From an uncultured Alphaproteobacteria bacterium (GTDB lineage Bacteria > Pseudomonadota > Alphaproteobacteria > UBA11222), in contig CAMTWQ010000025.1 in the NCBI GenBank assembly GCA_947085465.1, forward strand, positions 7,691-71,690: a DNA stretch of 64,000 nt. The letters run 5' to 3'. A model generated the notes under the pieces. It saw only the letters and a program-made list of their open reading frames with translations. It did not search any database and was not told where the DNA came from. How positions within the stretch are numbered: position 1 is the first letter of the stretch; the number at the start of each line of letters is the position of its first letter. Shown here piece after piece: positions 10,279 to 15,692 of this stretch. The translations under genes were made by a program, and so were the position numbers.

Positions 10279-11034
10279 GTGGATATCGATTATTTACATG
10301 CCCTGCGGATGTGCGAACTTGCGGCGTGGCTAGCCCGCATACACGCGGATAAAAATCATTCCCTGCTGGAGATCGGCGCCGGTACAGGCGCGCAGGCGGC
10401 CCGACTCAGCCGGCATTTCAGCACCGTTGCAGCGGTTGACCTGGCCGCTTCACCCTATGCCAAGGCGCGAGAGTTTCCCGTGCAGGATTATGACGGCCAG
10501 CGGCTGCCGTTTGCGGATGCAAGCTTTGATGTGATCTACACCAGCCATGTGCTGGAGCATGTGGCTGATTTTGCGGCGTTAAGCGATGAAATGCGCCGGG
10601 TGCTGAAGCCAGGTGGGATAGCGGTGCATGTGCTGCCCACCCCCGCGTGGCGGATCGCCAGTTGCTTCACCCATTATCTCGCACTGCCGAAAATCCTGTT
10701 GTCGCGCGCCGCACCGCAAACTGGCGCCACCGCGCCGGGCGCTGGAAAATCGCTGACCGCGAATTTATTGTCGCTATTGTTCGCCGCCCGGCATGGCGAA
10801 AACGGCAACCGTTTTACCGAAGCCTTTTATTACCGCAGCGCCTGGTGGCGGCGGCGGTTTATTGATGCCGGCTGGCAGGTGACGGATGAATTTCCACTTG
10901 GGCTGTTTTATACCGGATATATGATTTTTGGCACGCGCTTGGGGGTCGCGTTGCGTGGCCGGCTTGCAAATATTCTGGGCAGTTCATCCTATTGTTTTGT
11001 CATGCGCAATGCAGGCGCACTTCCGCAAAGGTGA
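10279..11034 (+). CDS. Class I SAM-dependent methyltransferase
   Basis: 251 aa. LLEIGAGTGAQA motif I and FDVIYTSHVLEHV. GTG start. Confidence 0.75.
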   Translation: MDIDYLHALRMCELAAWLARIHADKNHSLLEIGAGTGAQAARLSRHFSTVAAVDLAASPYAKAREFPVQDYDGQRLPFADASFDVIYTSHVLEHVADFAALSDEMRRVLKPGGIAVHVLPTPAWRIASCFTHYLALPKILLSRAAPQTGATAPGAGKSLTANLLSLLFAARHGENGNRFTEAFYYRSAWWRRRFIDAGWQVTDEFPLGLFYTGYMIFGTRLGVALRGRLANILGSSSYCFVMRNAGALPQR

Positions 11035-11371
11035 GTTCCTCCCGCCCGCCGGGCGACACATAGACAAAACGCAGTTCTGAGGTCTGATCAATCATCACGC
11101 CGGGAAGCGGATGATACACCATGCCGCGCCCGCCAAAGCCGGGGCTGGCCGAACCCACGCTAAAGCAATCGCTGAACACCACCTGCATCAGTTTCAAGGC
11201 CACCCCATCCCTGGTGATCTCCTGGGGGATGCGCGTCAGTTCAAGAAAGGCGCGTTTATCGCTGGCGGCGCGGAATCCCTCGGCGAACGCCAGCCCCGCC
11301 AGCCGGTCCGCCTCGTCATCCTGGCGATGGGGATGGGAATGGCCGTGAAGATGATCATGCGGCGCGCTCAC
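11000..11371 (-). CDS. His-rich small protein (123 aa), last gene of the riboswitch operon; candidate metal-handling accessory protein
   Basis: N-terminus MSAPHDHLHGHSHPHRQDDE. Its GTG start overlaps the TGA stop of the upstream hydrolase (GTGA), which implies translational coupling. No P-loop and no CxxC pairs. Family not recognised. Confidence 0.6.
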   Translation of the reverse strand: MSAPHDHLHGHSHPHRQDDEADRLAGLAFAEGFRAASDKRAFLELTRIPQEITRDGVALKLMQVVFSDCFSVGSASPGFGGRGMVYHPLPGVMIDQTSELRFVYVSPGGREELTFAEVRLHCA

Positions 11372-12543
11372 GAGAAACTCACCGGCTTGTCGATCATGTG
11401 CTTGTGCTTGCCCATCATGCCGTTGGCCACCATGGCGCCAAGCACATCGACAATAACACGCACGCCAAACAACGCGGTGATTTCCGATTGGTCATAGGGT
11501 GGCGACACCTCGACCACCTCAAGGCCGCAAAGCCCCTGCGACGCCACCTTGCCAACCAGCGACAGCACCTCACGCGGCAAGAAACCGCCTGGCTCGGGCC
11601 AGCCCGTGCCAGGCACAAAGCCGCAGTCCACACAGTCAACGTCAAAGCTCAGATACACCGCATCCGCGCCCTTCCAGGCAAGCTCCAGCGCAATCTCGGC
11701 GGTCTTGTCGATGCCCAGTTCCTCGACATCGCGCATCGTGAGAATATTGGTGTTGCGCGCGCGGATCTGCGCCACCGCCTCGCGCGGCACCTGCCAGCCG
11801 CCGATGCCAATCTGCACCAGATTGGTGGCCGGCACATTTGGCAGATTCGTCGCATGAAACCAGGGCGTGGTGTGCATGCGCTCGTCCAGATCGCGCTCCT
11901 GAATATCCGCATGGCGGTCAAAATGAATGATGCCGATTTTTTTTGATGTGCATTGGGCAATGCCGCGCACGGTGGCGAAGCCAATGGAATGATCGCCGCC
12001 CAAAATAACCGGCATGGCGCCCGATGAAAACACATGCGCCACCGCGCGGCTGATCTGGTCAAAGGTTTTTTCGATATTGGCCGGAATAGTGAACACATCG
12101 CCGCTATCGCACAGGCTCATCTGTTCACGCAGGTCAACGCCCAGCTCATAATTATACGGCGTATACAGGGCCGAGATTTTACGCATGCCCTGCGGGCCAA
12201 ACCGCGCGCCGGGGCGGTAGGTGGTTCCGCCGTCAAACGGCACGCCGATGACGGCGGCGTCATAGTTGCCGGTGGCCCGTACGTCTTCCGCATAAGGCGC
12301 CTTGAGAAAGGTGTTGATGCCCGCGAAATGCGGCAATTCACCGCGCGCAAATGTTGGGATGCTGCGGTCCTGAATGCTATCCGCGCCGCTCAGGCCGAGT
12401 TTGAGGCTGCGCGCCTGCTCTTCTTTCCAGCGCTTGTCAGGAAGACCGGCTTCGGCAAGCGCGGCCTTCCAGCCGCGCGCCTGCATCTTATCGAAATCCG
12501 GGTGGTGACGCCGTAGGGAGGCTGGAAGCAATTTCATGCGCAT
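11368..12543 (-). CDS. Arginase/ureohydrolase-family hydrolase (agmatinase-like; candidate guanidine hydrolase)
   Basis: 391 aa. Ureohydrolase metal-ligand blocks are intact: ILGGDHSIG, HFDRHADI, LSFDVDCVDCGF, EVVEVSPPYD. It sits in an operon behind a guanidine-I-like riboswitch. Confidence 0.85.
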   Translation of the reverse strand: MRMKLLPASLRRHHPDFDKMQARGWKAALAEAGLPDKRWKEEQARSLKLGLSGADSIQDRSIPTFARGELPHFAGINTFLKAPYAEDVRATGNYDAAVIGVPFDGGTTYRPGARFGPQGMRKISALYTPYNYELGVDLREQMSLCDSGDVFTIPANIEKTFDQISRAVAHVFSSGAMPVILGGDHSIGFATVRGIAQCTSKKIGIIHFDRHADIQERDLDERMHTTPWFHATNLPNVPATNLVQIGIGGWQVPREAVAQIRARNTNILTMRDVEELGIDKTAEIALELAWKGADAVYLSFDVDCVDCGFVPGTGWPEPGGFLPREVLSLVGKVASQGLCGLEVVEVSPPYDQSEITALFGVRVIVDVLGAMVANGMMGKHKHMIDKPVSFS

Positions 12544-12545
12544 TG

Positions 12546-13271
12546 TTATCTCCGGTGTGTCAAGGGAATGTCATAGGTAATCGTTGCGCCTTGTTTGGCG
12601 TTTTGGGCCTTCAGGGATGGGATTTTATCGAACACCATGACCCGGGTTCCAAGCAAGAATCCTTCCTGTAAATCATGGGTAACCATAAAAATCATCATTT
12701 CATTTTCACGCCACAGGCGCAGGATCAATTCGTGCATGTCCTTGCGGGTTCCTGGATCAAGCGCGCCAAATGGCTCATCCAGCAGCAGCACCTTTGGCTG
12801 CATGATAAGCGCCTGGGCAATGGCGAGGCGCTGCTGCATGCCGCCGGACAGCGCCGCCGGGTAAAGATCGCGGGCCTGCGCCAGGCCAACGGATTCAAGA
12901 TACTGCATGGCGGTTTCCCGCGCCTTCCTGCGCGCCGCGCCGAACAAGCGGCCAAGCAGGGGCGAACCGGAAAAGCTTGGGCCGAGCATGACGTTTTCCA
13001 GCACGCTCAAATGCGGAAACACCGAATAGCGCTGATAGACAACGCCGCGGCCGGGTCCGGGCTCGCGCGCGATAGGCGCGCCATCGATTAATATCTCGCC
13101 GCCCGATGGCGTGACTTCGCTCAACAGCATTCGTAAAAATGTGCTCTTGCCGCAGCCGGACGCGCCGACAATAACGCAAAATTCCTGCCCCGCAATTTCT
13201 ATGTTGATGTCGCGCAGCACCGGCTGGTGGTTATATTCCTTGGACAGATTTTTAATGGAAATCGCTGTCAT
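12546..13271 (-). CDS. ABC transporter ATP-binding protein (NitT/TauT family)
   Basis: GASGCGKST Walker A, LSGGMQQRLAIA signature, LLLDEPFGALD Walker B. I moved the start to the MTAISIKNL Met, which forms an ATGA overlap with the permease stop. Confidence 0.9.
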   Translation of the reverse strand: MTAISIKNLSKEYNHQPVLRDINIEIAGQEFCVIVGASGCGKSTFLRMLLSEVTPSGGEILIDGAPIAREPGPGRGVVYQRYSVFPHLSVLENVMLGPSFSGSPLLGRLFGAARRKARETAMQYLESVGLAQARDLYPAALSGGMQQRLAIAQALIMQPKVLLLDEPFGALDPGTRKDMHELILRLWRENEMMIFMVTHDLQEGFLLGTRVMVFDKIPSLKAQNAKQGATITYDIPLTHRR

Positions 13272-14092
13272 GGCTCGTTCCCGGCCGGTTGAAACCAGAC
13301 GAACCTCGTGCGCTGAATTTTCCGCAGCAGATAATCCGATAAAAAAGCCAGCAAGGTAATCCACGCCACATAGGGCAGGATGACATCCATCGCCAGATAC
13401 CGGCGCACCAGAAAAATCCGGTAGCCAAGCCCCTCTGTCGCCGCAATGGCCTCGGCGGCGATCAAGAACAGCCAGGCCGGGCCAAGCGATAATCGCACCG
13501 CATCAATAAGGCGTGGCATTATCTGGGGCGCCACAATCCGCACTATGATTTGCCAGGTGGATGCGCCAAGGGTCTGCGCCTTGATCAATTGTTCGGCCGG
13601 CAGTTCGGCCACGCGCATGGACATGTCGCGCATCATAAAGGGCGCGACACCTATAATGATGAGAATAATTTTCGACAGCTCGCCCAGCCCAAACACAATG
13701 AACAATATCGGCAATAACGCCATCGGCGGCACCATGGAGAGCACGGCGATCAATGGTGAAAATGTCCGCCCCGCATAGGGCAGCAGGCCCGTTGCAATGC
13801 CAAATGCAAGGCCCATCGCCGTGGCCGATAGAAGACCAATGATCAGACGCCGAAGGCTCGCCACTGTATCCGCCCACAACAAAATATCGCCGCTGCGCGG
13901 ATCTGTTTGCAGCGCCATGCGGTCAATGGCGTCTGCAAACGCCATCAGCGGCGGCAGTAATTTATCATTCGGGTTTGCCTCCTGCCGCACATCGGAGGCG
14001 GCCAGATATACGCCCAGCAGCAGCAAAAAGGGCAACGCGCCCAGCAGCCAGCCACCGAACGCTGACGGGCGCCAGTTGATCATGCGGCGCAT
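13268..14092 (-). CDS. ABC transporter permease (NitT/TauT family)
   Basis: 274 aa, polytopic hydrophobic protein, with a binding-protein-dependent transport signature region (EQLIKAQTLGASTWQIIVRIVAPQIMP). Confidence 0.88.
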   Translation of the reverse strand: MRRMINWRPSAFGGWLLGALPFLLLLGVYLAASDVRQEANPNDKLLPPLMAFADAIDRMALQTDPRSGDILLWADTVASLRRLIIGLLSATAMGLAFGIATGLLPYAGRTFSPLIAVLSMVPPMALLPILFIVFGLGELSKIILIIIGVAPFMMRDMSMRVAELPAEQLIKAQTLGASTWQIIVRIVAPQIMPRLIDAVRLSLGPAWLFLIAAEAIAATEGLGYRIFLVRRYLAMDVILPYVAWITLLAFLSDYLLRKIQRTRFVWFQPAGNEP

Positions 14093-14124: not shown

Positions 14125-15192
14125 TCACAACTTGCCGTCCGCCGCCATCTGCATGTAGGTCGAATCAAAGCGCAGCTTGATGTTGGCGGTGTCGCCAAGC
14201 ACGCCGCCGCCCGGAAACTGAATGCCGATTTTGTCCACGGACGCGCCGCTTTCGCCAAACAGGCCATGCGCCGCCGAAAATTTCCGCACCGCATCCATGG
14301 TGTTTTTCACAGCGGCGCTATTGGTGAACGCCACCCCTTCGCTGGCGAGATACATCATTTTTGTCGTCGCAAGCTGCGCCTCATATCCGGCAACATCGGT
14401 TCCTGACGCCTTGGCAAGCCCGGCGCGCATCGCTGTGTCTTTTTGCATCAGCGCCATCGCCTCATACCATGCGCCGGTCAACGCCTTGCCGAAGGCGGGA
14501 TTATCCTTAAGGGTGGCGGTGTTGACCACCATCAGATCGATGATCTCACCCGGGATTTGCGAGGAGTCAAATACCTTGCTGGCGCCGGGAACGGCCGCCA
14601 CTTCGGATAATTGCGGATTCCAGGTCACGACAGCGCTCACGTCAGCCGAGCCGCTGAACGCCGCGACGATGTCGGCGTCCGATGTATTGACCACCGTCAG
14701 GTCTTTTTCCGAAAGCTTGTTTTTCTCCAGCGCGCGGGCCAGCAGATAATGCGATACGGAAAGCTCGACCAGATTGACCTTCCGCCCCTTTAGATCAGCG
14801 ACGCTTGCGCCATTTTTCACGACAATGCCGTCATTGCCGTTGGAAAAATCGCCAGTGATCAGCGCCGTGCTGTCCACGCCGCCAACCGCTGGAATGGTCA
14901 GCGCGTCCATATTGGTCATGCTGCACCCATCAAAGCCGCCTGCGGTGTATTGATTGATGGATTCGACATAATCGTTGATCTGCACGATCTCGACATCAAT
15001 GCCGTATTTCTTCGCCCATTTTTTCATGATCCCTGAATCTTGCAGATAACCCCACGGCATCCAGCCCACATAGATCGACCAGCAGACTTTGAAGCTGGAT
15101 TTCTGTGCGGCCGATGCGGGCTGCGTACTTGCCGCGACCAGCATTAATACGGCGCCTAGCATCACGGTGATGTTTTTGAAAAATTTGCTCAT
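14125..15192 (-). CDS. ABC transporter periplasmic substrate-binding protein (NMT1/TauA-like)
   Basis: True start taken at MSKFFKNITVMLGAVLMLVAASTQPASA (signal peptide, GGAGGG RBS 8 nt upstream). The 106 upstream codons of the track ORF cover a repeat element and the riboswitch and are not coding. Confidence 0.88.
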   Translation of the reverse strand: MSKFFKNITVMLGAVLMLVAASTQPASAAQKSSFKVCWSIYVGWMPWGYLQDSGIMKKWAKKYGIDVEIVQINDYVESINQYTAGGFDGCSMTNMDALTIPAVGGVDSTALITGDFSNGNDGIVVKNGASVADLKGRKVNLVELSVSHYLLARALEKNKLSEKDLTVVNTSDADIVAAFSGSADVSAVVTWNPQLSEVAAVPGASKVFDSSQIPGEIIDLMVVNTATLKDNPAFGKALTGAWYEAMALMQKDTAMRAGLAKASGTDVAGYEAQLATTKMMYLASEGVAFTNSAAVKNTMDAVRKFSAAHGLFGESGASVDKIGIQFPGGGVLGDTANIKLRFDSTYMQMAADGKL

Positions 15193-15239
15193 TGCACGAC
15201 CCTCCATAAATGACGCGTTTATCAGCACGGGCGCCGGGC

Positions 15240-15352
15240 CTAGACCATTTCCTGATCGGATTGAATCAATCCGATCAGGAAATGGTCTAACGCATTCAAT
15301 CAGAGCCTTTCTTATCCGGTCAGGTTGGTTCAACCTGACCGGGAAAGGCTCT
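15240..15352 (+). repeat. Double-hairpin intergenic repeat, copy 1 (in the 5' leader of the riboswitch operon)
   Basis: Hairpin 1 is gaccatttcctgatcggattgaatcaatccgatcaggaaatggtc, a perfect 21-bp stem. Hairpin 2 is agagcctttcttatccggtcaggttggttcaacctgaccgggaaaggctct. Near-identical copies lie at 23772-23890 and 30000-30118. Confidence 0.9.
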
Positions 15353-15433
15353 GGGGGTCTGGTTTCGCAGCGGGCGAGAGGGCCATTCCCATGGCATCCC
15401 GAGCGACGGGCAGGCGCCCATTGCCGCACGAAA

Positions 15434-15532
15434 CCTCCCGGGTTTTTGTCCCGCCGTGTGTCCGGCCGGTCAACCGGCTGGATCGCATCTCTCGGACCAG
15501 CACGCCTCATGGAAAAGGCGCCGGAACCCTAG
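15434..15532 (-). promoter_or_regulatory. ykkC / guanidine-I riboswitch aptamer
   Basis: The minus strand reads CTAGGGTTCCGGCGCCTTTTCCATGAGGCGTGCTGGTCCGAGAGATGCGATCCAGCCGGTTGACCGGCCGGACACACGGCGGGACAAAAACCCGGGAGG. The blocks CUAGGGUUCCG, GGUCCGAGAG and ACACGGCGGGA-AAAA-CCCGGGAG match the remembered guanidine-I consensus. Confidence 0.8.
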
Positions 15533-15692
15533 ACGCGTATTAAGCTTCTGTTAAGCAATTGTTATGCCATTAATAAGGGCGCGGCGGCAGGGCGGGGTAT
15601 CGCATCACGGCCGCCATATTTGCCTGAATTTAGGGCTAATCCTGACGGTCTGCCTATTTATCCAGCAATTTAATTCTATCCGCCTCAGAAAC

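Follow-up and report, generated by a model that had tools for sequence, protein, structure and literature searches.

Introduction

The guanidine hydrolase GdmH is a recent discovery that matters for nitrogen cycling in cyanobacteria and comammox Nitrospira, and for biotechnology in the context of ethylene-forming enzyme strains and guanidine-based fertiliser. The Synechocystis enzyme is Ni-dependent and needs accessory Ni-loading proteins (PMC12704784, PMC12186494), and cyanobacterial GdmH is matured by the HypA/HypB-like pair GhaA/GhaB (PMC12704784). Metformin hydrolase, which is related to GdmH, needs both HypA/HypB and a second, non-catalytic subunit (PMC11399263). The guanidinase of N. inopinata is partly active when expressed with Ni alone, and the Ni-loading route of comammox guanidinases that lack HypA/HypB has been stated as unclear (PMC11410670). 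GdmH activity in heterologous hosts depends on Ni loading, and the sole known helpers are HypA/HypB-like.

Ni enzymes of other kinds have helpers with His-rich segments. UreE, the urease metallochaperone, is a small operon-encoded protein that combines a folded domain with, in some species, a His-rich C-terminal tail; it has a conserved metal-binding His in its folded C-domain and works with the UreG GTPase. The CODH Ni chaperones CooJ and CooT, the His-stretch of HypB, SlyD and Hpn all present His-rich, largely disordered Ni-binding tracts on a small folded or oligomerising module, and CooJ and CooT are encoded with their client enzyme. HypA binds Ni at its N-terminal MHE site via the N-terminal amine and His2.

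Here we describe ORF123, a small His-rich protein encoded directly after gdmH in a stretch of 64,000 nucleotides from an uncultured alphaproteobacterium, referred to below as the window. A first-pass annotation of this DNA had suggested that ORF123 is a possible dedicated metallochaperone for the neighbouring ureohydrolase. We compare the locus with gdmH loci in other genomes and metagenomes, and refer to members of the ORF123 family as the partner of GdmH.

Results

ORF123 is the last gene of a guanidine-I riboswitch operon

The genes of interest lie on the minus strand of the window. At the operon head is a guanidine-I riboswitch aptamer (15433..15543; RF00442, 87.5 bits against a gathering score of 63, E 5e-15). 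It is followed by the genes for the periplasmic substrate-binding protein of a guanidine/urea-type ABC importer (14125..15192; TIGR03427, E 4e-163), the ABC transporter permease (13268..14092; PF00528, E 2e-20) and the ABC transporter ATPase (12546..13271; PF00005, E 2e-31), by gdmH (11368..12543, 391 aa; PF00491, E 5e-77) and finally by ORF123 (11000..11371 including the stop codon, 123 aa), which was taken from the ORF list and its translation. With the importer genes, gdmH and the riboswitch all upstream on the same strand, ORF123 is therefore the final gene of a guanidine-induced import-and-hydrolysis operon. Plus-strand bases 11368-11371 are tcac, which reads GTGA on the minus strand, so that the GTG start of ORF123 overlaps the TGA stop of the hydrolase ORF. 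A scan found no internal promoter at the gdmH/ORF123 junction and no clear terminator after ORF123, and is uninformative. No NTPase was found among the window operon genes in a Pfam scan.

Two of the mechanically listed ORFs are over-extended. The listed ATPase ORF (12546-13364) would overlap the permease by 97 nt; inferred from translation, its true start is likely the ATG at 13271, which gives an ATGA overlap with the permease stop. The listed binding-protein ORF (14125-15510) passes through the riboswitch, and its true start is at about 15192; the protein translated from this position aligns from residue 1 in loci L001 and L002, the closest relatives of the window locus.

The 3' end of ORF123 overlaps by 35 nt, judged from the ORF coordinates only, the ORF of a convergent class-I methyltransferase on the plus strand (10279..11034; PF08241, E 8e-21), which lies outside the system. 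This overlap had been remarked on as unusual. In L001 and L002 there is no methyltransferase match and a convergent epimerase gene directly follows the partner gene, and locus L030 likewise has an epimerase match and no methyltransferase match. The methyltransferase gene looks like a lineage-specific insertion, and because it is absent from the closest relatives we consider the overlap real but incidental and reject a functional meaning for it.

The upstream gene encodes a GdmH ortholog

In a profile search of the PDB the window hydrolase matched the N. inopinata guanidinase (9fek, E 1e-166) and Synechocystis GdmH (7esr/7oi1, E 5e-162) with scores far above those of guanidinobutyrase, agmatinase and metformin hydrolase. 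The motifs GGDHS, DRHAD and SFDVDCVD are visible in its translation. The protein satisfies the criteria that we set for GdmH membership: it closely resembles the guanidinases that have been characterised, it has the arginase fold and its metal-ligand motifs, and its operon is headed by a guanidine-I riboswitch. Judged by its sequence, this 391-aa arginase-fold protein is a clear GdmH ortholog, its substrate specificity being inferred.

ORF123 belongs to an undescribed protein family

A word-indexed search returned 28 homologs of ORF123, and among 1.84 billion proteins the family comprises 112 cluster representatives, 44 of them at E<1e-10. Nearly all of these are single-domain proteins of 90-230 aa. 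Pairwise dN/dS values are 0.10-0.44 (eleven of twelve pairs, with synonymous sites unsaturated), and third codon positions are the least conserved. ORF123 is a genuine gene and not a chance frame of a GC-rich genome. In their source records the members are named "hypothetical protein" in every case and, where a taxon is given, are assigned to Alphaproteobacteria or Rhodospirillales. A second subfamily, B, has the core motifs DPTSFLRLA and TPHLGG..FRYDPLP and is homologous at an hhalign probability of 99.9%.

Comparison of ORF123 with Pfam and NCBIfam gave only noise (E 0.15-0.18), and PDB sequence profiles gave no relevant match. We found no description of a His-rich guanidinase partner in the literature; a mention in the 2022 GdmH discovery paper is not excluded. 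Novelty lies in the family itself, with its fold, motifs and client; His-rich helpers encoded in the operon of a Ni enzyme are, as a kind, already known.

A search for natural GdmH-partner fusions found none. Two cluster representatives, P0058 and P0079, have the appearance of fusions and look like gene-calling read-throughs. Public calls for P0089, P0090, P0106, P0137, P0058 and P0079 either mis-frame the His/Asp-rich tract (MTIITT.., MITDMTTTII..) or fuse the GdmH C-terminus to the partner core. Mis-framing of this tract is frequent among public gene calls, and automated annotation therefore under-reports the His-rich tails of the family.

The partner gene is tightly linked to gdmH

Genome contigs were searched with an alignment of 10 homologs. 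In all 24 loci found through ORF123 a family member lies just downstream of gdmH; a homolog directly follows gdmH on the same strand in 19/19 species-representative genome loci and in 4/4 metagenome contigs of the distant subfamily. The GdmH orthologs in the loci found in this way are 70-94% identical to that of the window.

We also assembled a blind sample of the 80 closest gdmH loci (73-89% identity to window GdmH), chosen without regard to ORF123, of which 76 had usable downstream DNA. This metagenome sample is biased to close relatives of the window GdmH. The partner was present in 71/76, with 70 detected by the family HMM and one, L039, recognised by eye at a contig end. Relative to the gdmH stop, the partner start falls at -11 to +28 nt in 62 of the 70, often in ATGA, GTGA or TTGA overlaps.

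Among 401 genomes of the class, nine contain the family, and the same nine contain a GdmH of at least 72% identity encoded next to it; the family was not found without gdmH in these 401 genomes, and one further genome has neither, only GdmH paralogs of 56-58% identity. In a phylum-wide sample GdmH occurred only in genomes of the same class, with four new carriers, all four with an adjacent partner. Each of the 13 reference genomes with gdmH has the partner gene adjacent (13/13), and several of these carriers are complete genomes. The partner gene is thus strictly and tightly linked to gdmH. The first-pass annotation had named lack of conservation downstream of homologous hydrolases as grounds for refutation and had proposed that co-occurrence with riboswitch-linked hydrolases be analysed. 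The gene is conserved at that position, and a guanidine-I riboswitch is present wherever there is an ABC importer and the locus reaches far enough upstream (11/11 loci). Stellaceae loci have the arrangement formamidase-gdmH-partner without ABC importer or riboswitch; retention of the gdmH-partner pair despite this changed operon marks the pair as a conserved unit.

The five partner-less gdmH loci form one clade (SH-aLRT 99) that is nested among partner-bearing lineages, and a single loss therefore explains them. In three of them (L048, L049 and L096) the urease accessory gene ureD directly follows gdmH, and L049 also has ureA; in L057 and L070 a Gcw_chp porin-like gene follows gdmH. HypA and HypB were not found in the scanned flanks of the five loci.

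Some loci merit separate mention. The alphaproteobacterial genome G084 has two GdmH paralogs of 56-58% identity (C29:1646-2815 and C121:11655-12752), and neither the partner family nor HypA; these paralogs may have a different substrate or form a heteromeric enzyme. A 537-kb contig binned as Flavobacteriaceae (L012, JBFWQA010000003.1) contains a gdmH-partner pair that is sister to the Rhodobiaceae locus L015, which reflects either mis-binning or recent transfer. In a Stellaceae MAG gdmH is split over two frames at about 7415 (L007:6813-7984), through a frameshift or an assembly error. In L039 (4331-4600) about 200 nt of extra, non-coding-looking DNA separates the gdmH stop from the partner start; this spacing is 1 nt in sister loci.

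Partner-linked GdmHs share a C-terminal motif

Comparison of the C-termini of about 100 GdmHs revealed the motif H[KR]xxI[DN][KQR]P[VI]x[FY] at or near the end of all partner-linked enzymes. In the window it lies in the tail HMIDKPVSFS (11371..11400, minus strand), which contains the IDKPVxF/Y motif. The five partner-less GdmHs end in ..HRxIIRG(WG) and lack it. Neither 9fek nor 7esr aligns past residue ~381 of window GdmH, which leaves the motif stretch unaligned. In some lineages 10-25 further residues follow the motif, so that the ribosome-binding site of the downstream gene does not account for its conservation. As the partner-less loci all fall in one clade, the co-occurrence of motif and partner represents a single correlated event, not statistically independent observations, and is suggestive, nothing more.

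A conserved core carries a mobile His-rich tail

Structure prediction, which had been suggested as a check, gave a confident AlphaFold2 model of ORF123 (83-sequence alignment; mean pLDDT 90.8, pTM 0.73). In the model, residues 1-13 form a flexible tail; a long helix at 14-35 and a short one at 39-45 follow, then six beta-strands and, at the C-terminus, a further helix. The conserved core, residues 21-123 (11003..11311, minus strand), takes in the two helices, the six strands and the C-terminal helix and contains the motifs AFxEGFRxAxDK and ASPGFGxxxxVYHPLPG. Residues 1-13 are without secondary structure, and the pLDDT of the tail is 64-70. A model of a subfamily-B member has the same core topology, with pLDDT above 90 over most of the core, and a 60-residue N-terminal region that is predicted to be disordered. 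A fold search with the ORF123 model returned no significant match to any solved structure.

Conserved positions of the core are occupied by Asp, Lys, Pro, Gly, Tyr and Phe. The family alignments contain no invariant His or Cys in the core, which fits a docking module. Neither a CxxC pair nor a GxxxxGK[ST] P-loop occurs in ORF123 or in any of 94 family members, as had been noted for ORF123 itself.

The N-terminal tail of ORF123, MSAPHDHLHGHSHPH (residues 1-15; 11327..11371, minus strand), contains 6 His in 15 residues, a density with a binomial P of 7e-7 given the 2.35% His of six neighbouring proteins. Across the 94 locus-derived members, a tail with at least 4 His, N- or C-terminal, is found in 88. 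The N-terminal tail has at least 4 His in 79/94 (median 10 His, 21% of the tail), a C-terminal tract takes its place in 9/94, and the same alternation of N- and C-terminal tracts is seen among the cluster representatives. The remaining members with few His (6/94 in the full tally, nine by another count of ours) still start with MPHD or MHE. The longest tails reach 20-25 His.

Several short motifs recur in these tails: GHN is present in 64/94 members, HLHSH in 27/94 and QWQ(TPH) in 40/94. Although this region is predicted to be disordered in subfamily B, all members of that subfamily have the N of GHN and the W of QWQ, and conservation of the adjoining G, H and Q is 90% or higher. A His is predicted at mature position 2 (MH.., or PH../AH.. 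after Met removal) in 60/94 members. The window protein is short-tailed; it begins MSAPHDH, so that the first His is residue 5 (residue 4 if Met is removed), and its HDHLHGHSHPH stretch corresponds to a short version of the HLHSHxH motif of the family. Since the tract changes ends between lineages and contains conserved motifs, the His-rich tail is under selection and more than low-complexity sequence.

HypA and HypB are rare in partner-bearing genomes

Eight near-complete partner-bearing genomes were examined for known Ni helpers. HypA was detected in 2/8 and true HypB in 1/8. One HypA, beside the true HypB, lies 3.5 Mb from gdmH, and the second, at 18 kb, is only a partial match; no HypA or true HypB lies within about 18 kb of gdmH in the eight genomes. 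HypA was not found in the window's own MAG, which is 69% complete, so that its absence proves little. The remaining TIGR00073 matches fall below the family cut-off and look like UreG. UreG-like GTPases are encoded in all host genomes examined, and on the window contig a UreG-like gene lies about 60 kb from the gdmH-partner pair. In G398 a UreG-like gene (C2:116536-117096) is convergent with the partner gene at a distance of 65 nt, and in G112 one (C17:36648-37208) lies 3 kb upstream of gdmH.

Discussion

The best-supported reading of these data is that the ORF123 family is a dedicated accessory partner of GdmH in Alphaproteobacteria and related metagenomic lineages. More specifically, we propose, with no more than moderate confidence, that ORF123 is a previously undescribed dedicated metallochaperone for GdmH without an NTPase of its own, metal binding and activation both being inferred. 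The family fulfils two criteria for His-rich Ni metallochaperones in a functional sense, as proteins that work like UreE, CooJ or the HypB tail: a His-rich tract under selection, and linkage to a Ni enzyme (24/24, 71/76 and 13/13). The metallochaperone interpretation put forward in the first-pass annotation is supported, and metal binding and an effect on hydrolase activity are still inferences.

Since the partner start overlaps the gdmH stop or is no more than about 20 nt from it, we infer that translation of the two genes is coupled. In the mechanism we envisage, the structured core of the partner, of ~100 residues, would dock on GdmH, possibly on the C-terminal IDKPVxF/Y tail of the partner-linked enzymes. 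The flexible His-rich tail would capture Ni(II) via its near-N-terminal His, the GHN motif and HxHxH-type motifs, and would hand it to the binuclear active site of GdmH. In this way the partner, which has no NTPase of its own, may do the work that the HypA/HypB-like GhaA/GhaB do in cyanobacteria. Metal binding, metal identity, physical docking, the effect on activity and NTPase independence are each inferred for the partner. As UreG-like GTPases occur in all hosts, its NTPase independence is not shown, and the partial activity of the N. inopinata guanidinase with Ni alone indicates that a helper may not be strictly required.

Strict linkage and translational coupling are also what would be expected of a stoichiometric subunit. 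The partner could then be a non-catalytic structural or regulatory subunit of GdmH that stabilises the hexamer, gates the active-site tunnel or tunes activity, with the His tract in a secondary role, for example as a metal-sensing switch. A core without invariant metal ligands is compatible with such a role, as is the joint occurrence of the partner and the C-terminal GdmH motif, and the second, non-catalytic subunit of metformin hydrolase provides a precedent (PMC11399263). However, the two solved GdmHs are stable homohexamers (PMC11410670) that lack the C-terminal motif, and the partner family is not reported in their organisms. The partner also evolves much faster than GdmH (37-64% versus 73-94% identity). 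Retention of the His tract through its shifts from one terminus to the other suggests that metal handling is the trait under selection. We consider a purely structural or regulatory role rather unlikely.

His-rich tracts are also found in metal storage and buffering proteins and can be dispensable, which weighs against the metallochaperone reading. With tails that are extremely His-rich (up to 20-25 His), a tract whose length and position vary freely and an operon that encodes no NTPase, the partner might serve to store or buffer Ni in the manner of Hpn or the HypB tail. It would then be induced together with GdmH as a reserve of Ni, or as protection from Ni or other metals, and would neither dock specifically nor insert the metal. 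A pure buffer would, however, have no need of a conserved ~100-aa folded core under purifying selection. Short-tailed members such as the window protein, with its 15-residue tail, would store very little Ni, and the gene is never found away from gdmH, even though these genomes also have the Ni enzyme urease. Buffering or storage alone appears quite improbable to us.

A further suggestion, that the partner is an adapter from GdmH to the urease maturation machinery (UreE/UreG), or a channel of urea to urease, and does not itself handle Ni, draws on the genomic context. UreG-like GTPases are present in all host genomes, and near the pair in G398 (65 nt) and G112 (3 kb), and in the partner-less clade gdmH stands directly before ureD. 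The UreG-like gene of the window is nevertheless about 60 kb away, and an adapter would leave the His-rich tail and its conserved motifs unexplained. Pfam, NCBIfam, PDB profile and fold searches linked the partner to no urease accessory protein, and we regard this role as very unlikely. Lastly, the GTG start of ORF123, its lack of database annotation and its overlaps at both ends might be cited in favour of a decaying gene or of a frame that is open merely by chance in GC-rich DNA. The conservation data (112 cluster representatives, dN/dS 0.10-0.44 and synteny in about 100 loci, along with a confident AlphaFold2 model) exclude this reading.

Encoded by a single small gene that is found with over 90% of the alphaproteobacterial-type gdmH genes in our sample, the partner is a directly testable candidate for the missing Ni-loading step. 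It could possibly serve as a compact tool for making active enzyme, and it offers a new fold and motif set for research on Ni trafficking. It also gives a functional annotation hypothesis for a family now named "hypothetical protein".

Membership of the known families of Ni-delivery proteins is not met. For HypA, there is no match to the PF01155 profile at E<=1, and CxxC, of which HypA has two pairs, occurs in 0/94 members. For the HypB/UreG/CobW G3E GTPases (PF02492, TIGR00073), there is no profile match, no P-loop in 94 members and no PDB fold match. For UreE, there is no UreE family among the Pfam matches at E<=1, no relevant PDB profile match and no invariant core His. The first-pass annotation had held that ORF123, if it is a metal-delivery factor, must be of a different kind, and this agrees with the absence of detectable similarity to HypA, HypB/UreG and UreE in Pfam, NCBIfam, PDB profile and fold searches.

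The partner nonetheless resembles UreE in being a small operon-encoded helper of a Ni hydrolase with a His-rich tail that is variable in length and presence; it differs from UreE in having no invariant core His or Cys, and its fold search gave no match to any solved structure. With CooJ, CooT, the HypB stretch, SlyD and Hpn it shares a His-rich tract on a small module and, as with CooJ and CooT, it is encoded with its client. It has no detectable homology or fold match to these proteins, and its client is different. We know of no description of the GHN, HLHSHxH and QWQTPH motifs for CooJ, CooT, the HypB stretch, SlyD or Hpn. The His at mature position 2 in 60/94 members resembles the MHE Ni site of HypA, and is a lead only, as the rest of the protein is unrelated.

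The closest functional parallels are the HypA2/HypB-like GhaA/GhaB of Synechocystis (Sll1078/Sll1079), which like the partner have a Ni-dependent ureohydrolase encoded next to them, in an operon that is substrate-specific or under a guanidine riboswitch, and presumably supply Ni to its binuclear site (PMC12704784), and the HypA/HypB of the metformin and dimethylguanidine hydrolase operons, which likewise adjoin a Ni-dependent ureohydrolase and are presumed to supply Ni (PMC11399263). The partner has no sequence or fold similarity to either pair and is a single small protein with neither a CxxC zinc site nor a P-loop GTPase. It accompanies the alphaproteobacterial-type GdmH and not the cyanobacterial one. 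It is possible, if doubtful at present, that non-cyanobacterial guanidinases have this family as their main Ni-insertion factor, with a fold unmatched among solved structures, no NTPase of its own, a core that sits on the IDKPVxF/Y peptide and a tail with M-H/P-H, GHN, and HLHSHxH or QWQTPH motifs; docking and delivery are inferred here, and Nitrospira was not sampled. If this were true, the problem of Ni loading would have been solved independently a third time, in addition to the systems of the HypA/HypB and UreDEFG types.
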